In this document: positions 26,944 through 28,826 of the stretch, in pieces
Position numbering within the stretch: the first letter of the stretch is position 1
Layout of the letters: each line of letters begins with the position of its first letter
Source: a virus
Lineage: Duplodnaviria > Caudoviricetes
Strand: one strand, 5' to 3'
Length of the DNA: 64,000 nucleotides
Virus record (IMG/VR): IMGVR_UViG_3300029288_000066
Coordinates: 1 to 64,000 of that record
The notes under the pieces: generated by a model
The model's database searches: none
Told to the model about the DNA's origin: nothing
The model's input: only the letters and a program-made list of their open reading frames with translations
Translations under genes and position numbers: made by a program

Positions 26944-27090
26944 TTAACACTTCTCTTTATCCAAAATGCAATCCTTACCTGTAACCTTTAAACTTGTAGT
27001 GATACATCTGAACTCCTTATGAATATAACTCCAATAAGTATTGTTGCATTTTTCAGTGCATTTTCTAACAACTTTCTTTTTATCTTTCAT
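26944..27090 (-). CDS. cassette 1 ORF, 48-aa Cys-rich peptide
   Basis: hand-translated MKDKKKVVRKCTEKCNNTYWSYIHKEFRCITTSLKVTGKDCILDKEKC. Confidence 0.55.
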   Translation of the reverse strand: MKDKKKVVRKCTEKCNNTYWSYIHKEFRCITTSLKVTGKDCILDKEKC

Positions 27091-27131
27091 ATCACTTTCA
27101 TTAAAATTTTATACCTTATCTTTCCTTTTCA

Positions 27132-27157
27132 ATTTCGCTTGAATGGGCGAGGAATAG
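27132..27157 (-). repeat. internal inverted copy of the cassette 1 circle junction
   Basis: reverse complement = 27320-27333 joined to 26901-26912, 26/26. Confidence 0.9.
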
Positions 27158-27200
27158 AGCCAACTCTTATAAATTGCTGTCCCATACCGACGGCATCTCG

Positions 27201-27339
27201 CTTGAACACAGAATAGCGGTAATTCACGCATTTTACCACCAAGCAACTGCAATTTATCCTGTATCTTTTTTCTCATTTATTTTAAAATTACATTTTAAAA
27301 AATGCTCAAAAACATACCGCTATTCCTCGCCCATTATAT
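27201..27339 (+). other. attC-like site 1
   Basis: CTTGAAC..GAATAGCGGTA / TACCGCTATTC..A|TTATAT; 27188-27207 is an inverted repeat of 26900-26919 (19/20). Confidence 0.8.
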
Positions 27340-27361
27340 GGCATTGCTCCCGCAATTTCTT

Positions 27362-27616
27362 TTAGTCTTTCTGTGGCTCATAAAATTTGCATTCTGTATT
27401 AATACCATCACAAAAAGTATAATTACTTTCTTCGTGGTTCATACACATCGAAGAAGTATGAGTGCAAATTTCACTACCTTCTTCTTTGCCTGAATTAATT
27501 GATTTTTCTTGTAGGAATCTGTCTTTTATAAAATACAGATACTCGTAATTATCTTCTGGAAATTCTTTTTCAATTTCTTTTATAAAATCAATTAATTCTT
27601 TTTCAAGTTGTTTCAT
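27362..27616 (-). CDS. cassette 2 ORF, 84-aa protein with C-terminal Cys cluster
   Basis: MKQLEKELIDF...CTHTSSMC..C..C. Confidence 0.65.
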   Translation of the reverse strand: MKQLEKELIDFIKEIEKEFPEDNYEYLYFIKDRFLQEKSINSGKEEGSEICTHTSSMCMNHEESNYTFCDGINTECKFYEPQKD

Positions 27617-27649
27617 AGCAATTTCAGTGTTTATGCCTACACACAGGCT

Positions 27650-27677
27650 GCAATGCCATATAACGTGCGGGCGGTTG
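27650..27677 (-). repeat. internal inverted copy of the cassette 2 circle junction
   Basis: reverse complement = 27786-27799 joined to 27334-27347, 28/28. Confidence 0.9.
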
Positions 27678-27735
27678 TACAATTAGTTAATTATCATTCT
27701 TTCTATTTTCTTTTTACGTTAATCCTGCAACGTCC

Positions 27736-27805
27736 ATATAACAAGCGTTTGCCGCTATTAGCCCCGAAAATGGGGCAACAGACGGCAACCGCCCGCACGT
27801 TAGGC
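27736..27805 (+). other. attC-like site 2
   Basis: ATATAAC-AA-GCGTTTGCCG..GCCCC-gaaaat-GGGGC..CGGCAACCGC-CCGCAC-G|TTAGGC. Confidence 0.85.
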
Positions 27806-28189
27806 TTCATGCTCCAACGCACTCAGTTCCGTTAAGTCAGCAAGCAATTCGATACCTTTTTCAGTAAGCCAACCCGGCACACTTCCACCGTGTTCTGTAA
27901 GTTCCTTATTGTCTAAGAAGTACCACATAAAATATTCTGCCCCAGAATTTGCAAATACTTCATTTTTACGTTTATCCCATTGCTCGTATGTTAATTTCTT
28001 TTCCCATACAAGCTGATTAAGGTCATCAACTATTTGCAAAGCCTTACGCACGTGTTCTAATGCAGCATCTGGCATCCCACACCCACAGAAACCTAACACA
28101 CCAGTAGCTATAAAACTTTCTGCATCTTCATAGTAACATTCATCTTGGTCATAATAACCATCTTCTTTTTTAAATTTATCTATAAACAT
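27800..28189 (-). CDS. cassette 3 ORF, 129-aa hypothetical protein
   Basis: GFCGCGMP and TEHGGSVPGWLTEKG motifs; stop TAA overlaps the GTTA core. Confidence 0.75.
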   Translation of the reverse strand: MFIDKFKKEDGYYDQDECYYEDAESFIATGVLGFCGCGMPDAALEHVRKALQIVDDLNQLVWEKKLTYEQWDKRKNEVFANSGAEYFMWYFLDNKELTEHGGSVPGWLTEKGIELLADLTELSALEHEA

Positions 28190-28223
28190 ATCGTTTCGTT
28201 TTACCCGCCCACAAAGCACGAAA

Positions 28224-28324
28224 GCCTAACAAGCGGTATAGTTAATAAAGGCTGAATTAAGTTTATTTCTTCGATTGGTCGGTAGTGGTCAGCCTTTACT
28301 AAACCATACCGCCAGCCGTTCAAG
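28224..28324 (+). other. attC-like site 3
   Basis: GCCTAAC-AA-GCGGTATAGTTAATAAAGGCTGA / TCAGCCTTTACTAAACCATACCGC-CAGCC-G|TTCAAG. Confidence 0.88.
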
Positions 28325-28344
28325 CGAAATGCCGTCGCACACAA
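28318..28344 (+). repeat. 27-bp direct repeat, copy 2 (cassette 4 start)
   Basis: identical to 26900-26926. Confidence 0.95.
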
Positions 28345-28414
28345 CAAAATCAATTCAATTTTTTCCATAATATTAATTTTAGTTTATTTGTATATACTTT
28401 TTTAAAAATCCACG

Positions 28415-28470
28415 CTTCGCTTTAAAATTCATAATTAAATCTACCACTACAATCCCAGACCTCGTTATGC
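28415..28470 (+). other. degenerate attC-like site 4
   Basis: CTTCGCTTTAAA as a remnant of the expected TTCGCTTGAAC, then G|TTATGC at 28464; stem lost. Confidence 0.45.
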
Positions 28471-28740
28471 ACAATTAAAACGTATATGAAAGTAATGCTG
28501 TGCTATGAATCCATCTTTTACTTTCATAAAAAAAGTTATCTCGTAATTTGGATTTAAATTTTTTGAACAATAGTGATTATATAATAAATCGTGCAACCTT
28601 TTCAAATCGTAATCTATTACAATATCACCTTCTATATCCATTTCATGTCCGCAAGAACACGTAGTGTTAAATCCATTATCACGTAATATTTTTACGATTT
28701 CTCTTATAGGTTCTTCAATATTTTCTTCGTACCAATTCAT
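28465..28740 (-). CDS. cassette 5 ORF, 91-aa protein (TTCSCGH motif)
   Basis: stop TAA overlaps the GTTA core; flanked by TTATGCACAATTAAA / TTTAACCGTGCATAA. Confidence 0.75.
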   Translation of the reverse strand: MNWYEENIEEPIREIVKILRDNGFNTTCSCGHEMDIEGDIVIDYDLKRLHDLLYNHYCSKNLNPNYEITFFMKVKDGFIAQHYFHIRFNCA

Positions 28741-28771
28741 ATTCAAAAAATTTAGTTTATAATTTAACCGT

Positions 28772-28826
28772 GCATAACAAAGTCTAAAAAAACATTAAAA
28801 CGATTTTTTACACTCAACCGTTATTC
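28772..28826 (+). other. attC-like site 5 (last in array)
   Basis: GCATAAC-AA-AGTCTAAAAAA..TTTTTTACACT-CAACC-G|TTATTC. Confidence 0.8.

Follow-up and report, generated by a model that had tools for sequence, protein, structure and literature searches.

Integron-like cassette arrays with antisense cargo genes associated with a lineage of phage recombinases

The DNA analysed here (the window) comprises the first 64 kb of a viral record of 228,886 bases and contains a tyrosine recombinase gene with an array of hairpin-bounded units on its upstream side (Table 1). Relatives of the recombinase lie in phages and prophages of Bacteroidota, which points to a Bacteroidota host. Read in the plus direction from the integrase, the array consists of an attI-like core, cassettes 1 to 3, a remnant unit and cassette 5, followed by an ordinary phage gene. 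Since this 187-aa gene (16 viral homologues) shares 4 nt with its upstream neighbour and no hairpin lies there, it was taken as flank and not as a cassette. All four cargo ORFs (48, 84, 129 and 91 aa) are on the minus strand, as a sequence-only reading of this DNA had stated; the longest plus-strand ATG ORFs in the same bodies reach 26, 51, 15 and 23 aa, respectively. That reading had also described the hairpins as having the form TAACA...CGTT on the plus strand, and this polarity was recovered in the four hairpins that fold (27205–27335, 27740–27801, 28228–28320 and 28776–28822), one of which, site 1, has an altered core with ATT in place of GTT (CATT). Its observation that three TAA stops (27800, 28465 and 28821) are the reverse complement of a core TTA stood in so far as all three are preceded by a G (27799, 28464 and 28820), but the third, although a real core, belongs to the flanking phage gene and not to a cassette ORF. 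The predicted cargo genes and the integrase were shown to point the same way as the putative phage operon around them, in agreement with the earlier proposal of a co-oriented run headed by a promoter near 30407: all are on the minus strand, and a promoter-like motif was located at 30405–30414. No homologue of the 48-aa product was found in a search limited to close relatives, the 84-aa product has one full-length homologue (46% identity), the 129-aa product matches phrog_25507 (E 1e-9), its homologue being a plain phage gene in locus L338, and the 91-aa product has seven viral homologues (52–90% identity) without a detectable hairpin.

Table 1. Features of the recombinase locus and its cassette array (positions in the window).
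Feature	Position	Strand	Remarks
Tyrosine recombinase, 266 aa	26047..26847	-	IntI-like N-terminal domain; last gene of minus-strand run
attI-like simple site	26888..26902	+	hairpin-less; core G/TT at 26900; 53 bp before integrase start
Cassette 1	26901..27333		hairpin 27205-27335; nearest attI, presumably newest
Cargo ORF 1, 48 aa	26944..27090	-	Cys-rich; candidate gene
Cassette 2	27334..27799		hairpin 27740-27801
Cargo ORF 2, 84 aa	27362..27616	-	one full-length homologue
Cassette 3	27800..28318		hairpin 28228-28320
Cargo ORF 3, 129 aa	27800..28189	-	its TAA is the crossover core
Remnant unit	28319..28464		27-bp fused cassette ends and decayed 124-nt site 28343-28466
Cassette 5	28465..28820		short hairpin 28776-28822; distal, presumably oldest
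Cargo ORF 5, 91 aa	28465..28740	-	cassette end supplies last codons and TAA
Flanking phage gene, 187 aa	28821..29384	-	no cassette; its TAA forms the distal core
Bipartite phage promoter-like motif	30405..30430	-	TAAC, ~11 nt, TTTTTCGTATA; heads run entering the array

The recombinase has the domains PF13495 and PF00589 and scores 147.5 bits against TIGR02249 (integron integrase), below the cut-off of 265; the match spans positions 4–205 and 249–312 of the model only, leaving 206–248 unmatched. The insertion specific to IntI is absent, as seen from an alignment gap against both IntI4 and a Shewanella IntI, and the aligned host Bacteroidota enzymes likewise are without it. Judged by the missing insertion, the 266-aa recombinase is not an IntI. 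In a quick tree computed without bootstrap, in which the Leef integrase was left unplaced, 31 integrases of antisense arrays formed one group (SH-aLRT 99) apart from the host enzymes, and five of the seven cellular members of this phage clade that were tested adjoin phage head or portal genes. At the DNA level, the integrase gave no match in E. coli genomes. Danklef records match residues 120–266 of the recombinase only, perhaps reflecting a split gene. The attI-like sites presumably resemble dif-type Xer sites; in L012, for example, TAA is followed after six bases by TAT/TTA and TGT, about 46 bp ahead of the integrase.

The cassettes are closed, as in integrons, by hairpins with AAC/GTT cores, and their ends are self-complementary, those of cassette 1 over 20 bp (26900–26919 and 27188–27207). 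Folding of the minus strand exceeded that of shuffled sequences for the hairpins starting at 27205, 27740, 28228 and 28776 (z of -3.9, -4.1, -4.3 and -2.4, respectively), and in all four the minus strand gave the more stable fold; the last hairpin is weak, and its plus strand does not fold (z -0.2). The site at 28343–28466, though its 124 nt equal the modal length of the family, does not fold beyond shuffles (z +0.6/+1.1), so that the site closed by the core at 28464 counts as decayed. This remnant unit has no cargo gene of its own, and 27 bp of it (28318–28344) are identical to 26900–26926; it is a cassette-1-type end joined to 8 bp from the end of another cassette. With a mutated core at site 1 and decay at site 4, the array of the phage studied here may be partly frozen. 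Rfam gave nothing meaningful within 25900–30600, and hairpin 3 had no DNA-level match in cultured phages.

The polarity of the sites was established by comparison with related loci, using a hairpin detector relaxed to include GTTC and ATT cores. Across 63 viral loci, 346 hairpins with AACG..TGTT polarity on the strand of the integrase lie upstream of it; one has the opposite polarity and six are downstream. A lone 'opposite' cellular cassette was discounted as a run of N. Most relatives carry, 26–110 bp upstream of the integrase, an attI-like motif without a hairpin, which on the strand of the integrase reads AAC followed by TATYATATA. Homologous blocks common to different arrays begin at the AAC of a hairpin in 28 cases and at the GTT in three; this block-boundary analysis replaced a whole-body test of cassette pairs, which had only one informative pair. 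Near-identical cassettes occur at different ranks (L037 versus L060/L062). Such systems are also present in the cultured flavobacterial phages Freya (L326, L329–L337), Ingeline (L327) and Leef (L328). The layout recurs in the Polaribacter phage Freya, whose enzyme is 36% identical, and the main text of the paper on its isolation makes no mention of integrons or cassettes (PMC8776804). In Freya_5 and Freya_9 an internal AAC is joined directly to attI, while the unit beside attI in Freya_6 is absent from Freya_10 in the stretch compared; Freya_1 is a weaker case, its junction falling at the record end. By three independent lines, namely the polarity of the upstream hairpins, the block boundaries and the Freya junctions, each cassette comprises a hairpin and, following it on the strand of the integrase, a gene, and it is next to the integrase that the array changes. 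As expected of an entry point for new cassettes, a conserved simple site lies by the integrase and the Freya variants differ there. We are highly confident of the layout and polarity as read.

Of 351 hairpins of the phage clade, 295 fold better as the AACG..TGTT strand (mean gap 1.9 kcal/mol), and the same preference is seen in host hairpins, where this strand is the non-coding one (94 of 134, mean 1.2 kcal/mol; 61 of 120 in the shuffled control). Both gaps are near the strand difference of classical attC sites, 2.12 kcal/mol (PMC5027507). With wobble pairs uncredited, G-T outnumbers A-C in the hairpin stems by 165 to 38 in phages and by 63 to 40 in hosts, the host excess being modest. Since the same strand folds better in hosts, where it is non-coding, the bias evidently belongs to the site and not only to the mRNA. 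From folding and the G-T excess, the minus (bottom) strand is probably the one that recombines. A one-sided bulge of 4–5 versus 1–2 nt dominates in the hairpins. At fourfold sites, the minus strand is G-rich for genes of both strands over 0–192 kb, which suggests that it is the lagging-strand template; this orientation is known to favour attC folding and excision (PMC8946536).

The sequence-only reading had proposed to tally ORF orientation against site polarity in phage and host arrays. In the phage clade (124 loci), 334 cassette ORFs are antisense, four sense and 29 unclear, whereas Bacteroidota chromosomes with the same hairpins have 59 sense, five antisense and two unclear ORFs; direction was taken from the longest ATG frame, and the loci are partly non-independent, near-copies having been removed by cassette start only. 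First-position cassettes of the phage clade were antisense in 73 cases and sense in two, and the annotated CDS in the arrays of Freya, Ingeline and Leef agree with the antisense orientation. Antisense cargo is thus a trait of one phage recombinase lineage, as far as these counts go, and extends beyond a single phage. Of the four exceptions in sense orientation, three are genes of host-like length; these rare cassettes, first in L012 and L109 and at an inner position in L363, are candidates for capture from a host. In the Bacteroidota sample, chromosomal hairpins have the same modal length as the phage family, 124 nt, and occur in two layouts, upstream of a 280-aa enzyme or downstream of an enzyme of mostly 350–400 aa. 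Both layouts (upstream divergent and downstream co-directional; L286–L325) use the same hairpins, and several of these recombinase genes lie near contig ends.

How integron cassettes arise is an open question in general. The cassette ends form stems of about 14–15 bp in which position 11 is always mismatched, with the T on one constant side in all 204 viral cassettes and in 60 of 61 from hosts; the pair is G-T in 150 viral and 47 host cassettes and A-C in none. Flipping of gene bodies between complementary ends was therefore rejected: it would turn G-T into A-C, which was not seen, indicating that genes were inserted backwards within intact cassette ends rather than flipped later. Cassettes 1 and 2 each contain a perfect inverted copy of their circle junction (27134–27159 and 27651–27677), the former sharing the GTT-to-ATT change of site 1, but as a general route to antisense cassettes such copies were rejected, none of 220 cassettes of relatives having one. 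The homologues of cargo 3 and 5, on eight contigs, are plain phage genes without detectable hairpins, and the last codons of cargo 5 come from the cassette end; both observations suggest that cargo originated from phage genes, although the homologues in L339 and L340 could alternatively be decayed cassettes. The hairpin family is shared, yet it accompanies sense genes in hosts and antisense ones in phages; the direction of a gene would then be set when its cassette is made and be reversible for a whole lineage.

The bipartite motif that heads the run entering the array has 20 copies in the genome, 19 of them on the minus strand and most 17–77 nt before an ATG. Seven copies lie in the window, all minus (601, 8721, 9438, 22510, 24144, 30414 and 49204), where 0.2 would be expected; the copy at 30405–30430 scores 36.1, among the strongest, and inside the array none was found on either strand (best score <6). 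The gene gaps from the motif at 30414 to the first cassette are 4, 15, -4 and 80 nt, and no terminator-like site was found on the minus strand within the array. With a strong motif in front of the array and none within, distal read-through from this promoter is a fairly likely mode of cargo expression. In the relatives, genes beyond the last detected site are co-oriented in 30 of 34 arrays and genes after the integrase in 54 of 59. TAnnTTTG was found between attI and the integrase start in none of 72 relatives, nor in the array studied, and with the co-directional runs this suggests that the integrase probably depends on read-through as well. As a test for an outward Pc, TAnnTTTG occurred no more often than by chance in loci of the phage clade (19 and 11 of 72), in a test that is insensitive, host arrays expected to have a Pc showing no conserved one either. 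A sigma-70 scan gave 26 matches versus 27 expected, an 11/12 match at 28605–28576 (minus) being at chance level. A read-through transcript would need to cross 1.6 kb of genes and four stable hairpins. As RNA, these are stabler in the mRNA sense, at -12 to -36 kcal/mol, and might obstruct it. An expression gradient reversed with respect to that of integrons is offered as a hypothesis only, with somewhat less than an even chance of being right; ORF starts inside hairpins (67 of 208 phage cargo ORFs) and promoters of individual cassettes would blur any gradient.

Three other explanations were weighed. If the polarity had been misread, the ORF strand would be the top strand, the cassettes would be ordinary gene-then-attC units, and the array would grow at its far end with the integrase downstream; 35 of the 208 phage ORFs do stop in the TAAC preceding the next hairpin, as sense genes often do classically. 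The conserved hairpin-less site nevertheless lies at the integrase end and a hairpin at the far end, the hairpins travel with the gene downstream of them according to block boundaries and Freya, the same hairpin family reads oppositely relative to genes in chromosomes, and the Freya junctions largely refute a misreading, which we consider scarcely credible.

Cassettes might instead be expressed singly from promoters in hairpins or cassette heads, with no gradient in either direction. This would suit the strong RNA hairpins between genes, the T-rich stretch found 12–19 nt after the core in 170 of 383 hairpins and the spacers of 183–275 nt, and one cassette, shared by L002 (3090–3200) and L004 (4990–5110), has a Bacteroidota-type promoter at its head that faces its own genes. 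The array studied, however, contains neither a phage motif copy nor TAnnTTTG, and at cassette heads TAnnTTTG shows no preference for one strand (14 versus 11 of 204), so that single expression appears unlikely. The backward layout could also have been selected not for promoter use but for recombination, the recombining strand being the displaced, lagging-template one with high turnover, or for the hairpin as a 5' leader of the gene. The fourfold-site skew combined with the published effect on attC folding (PMC8946536), the ORF starts inside hairpins and the ten Freya isolates, which range from 44.0 to 48.9 kb and, where compared, differ in this array, would all accord with such selection; yet the skew is an indirect sign of replication direction in the phage, the cargo would still need transcription from somewhere, and the idea is compatible with the explanation that we prefer. 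As a replacement for it we regard selection of this kind as quite improbable.

The preferred explanation, which as a whole we consider likely, is an integron-like gene-swapping system of Bacteroidota phages whose genes are placed backwards and read distally. The recombinase would insert cassettes, as circles, into the attI-like site that immediately precedes its gene; the folded minus-strand hairpin would recombine between AA and C, as with IntI, both the strand and the chemistry being deduced from the sites. The geometry of sites and integrase is classical, but each cassette is a hairpin followed by a bottom-strand gene. Transcription from the promoter at 30405–30430 would cover the flanking genes, old cassettes, new cassettes and lastly the integrase; since a phage promoter would thus read the whole array, an outward Pc would be unnecessary. 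Backward placement in intact ends would occur at cassette origin, with ordinary phage genes as the main source, while sense cassettes of host type would enter rarely and usually be lost. During transcription the bottom strand would be the non-template one, and it would probably serve as the lagging-strand template, a position that would favour hairpin folding and quick cassette turnover. Going further, one may tentatively picture a mirror-image integron, with hairpins common to phages and hosts, backward cassettes made by phages, an array read from its oldest end, an integrase expressed last and tuned by its own cargo, and transcription that frees the recombining strand; we think this fuller picture more doubtful than probable, but if it were true, the making of new cassettes would be visible in such phages. 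Both the origin of cassettes and the expression model are open to test, through cargo that has plain-gene homologues in other phages and through isolates of the cultured phage Freya that differ by whole, exact units.

The system is integron-like in its working, though not an IntI integron. As in classical integrons (IntI1/attI1/attC; Vibrio cholerae IntI4, PDB 2a3v), the integrase gene adjoins a simple attI, the sites are imperfect hairpins with AAC/GTT cores, cassette ends are self-complementary and the bottom strand is the stabler (PMC5027507). Unlike them, it has an enzyme without the IntI insertion, a bulge of 4–5 versus 1–2 nt next to the core, end stems of 14–15 bp, a hairpin 5' of each gene, and an integrase co-directional with and downstream of its cargo; the cassette genes lie on the bottom strand (334 versus 4) rather than the top, whereas in integrons the choice of the bottom strand serves to place genes in front of Pc (PMC5027507, PMC8946536). 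In the reverse integrons of Treponema denticola (PMC7691350; inverted-integrase group, 10.1101/030866), integrase and cassette genes also share one direction, but there the integrase is turned round and upstream of attI with co-directional sense cassettes, whereas in the phage the integrase is classically placed, the genes are turned round and the integrase comes last, downstream of antisense cargo. Bacteroidales rAID-1 clusters (10.1101/471110) likewise combine a XerD-family recombinase with integron-like intergenic repeats in Bacteroidota, and their layout matches that of the chromosomal arrays downstream of 350–400-aa recombinases, in a comparison limited to layout. Unlike the phage array, they have the recombinase 5' of at least two co-directional downstream genes and carry immunity genes; here the array is upstream and a convergent glycoside hydrolase family 16 (GH16) gene lies downstream. 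Genes bounded by attC sites are also known from phages, a Polaribacter phage among them, as integrons and CALINs (Qi et al. 2023, PMC9892861); the cases in the available part of that paper are IntI integrons or integrase-less clusters, with no Xer-sized cognate recombinase or systematic antisense layout reported there. CALINs have no cognate integrase nearby, whereas an intact recombinase and an attI-like site adjoin the array described here. No description of the antisense-cargo layout was found in the literature searched, which covered few subscription papers.

A 43-nt direct repeat occurs at 24152–24194 and 26033–26075. The copy at 24152 encodes, on the minus strand, the last residues of the integrase and is directly followed by a copy of the phage promoter motif (24135–24144). 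The 1.9 kb between the repeats, with two minus-strand genes and the GH16 gene (25190–26044, plus strand), which is convergent with the integrase, their stops lying 2 nt apart, look like an insertion at the 3' end of the integrase gene.
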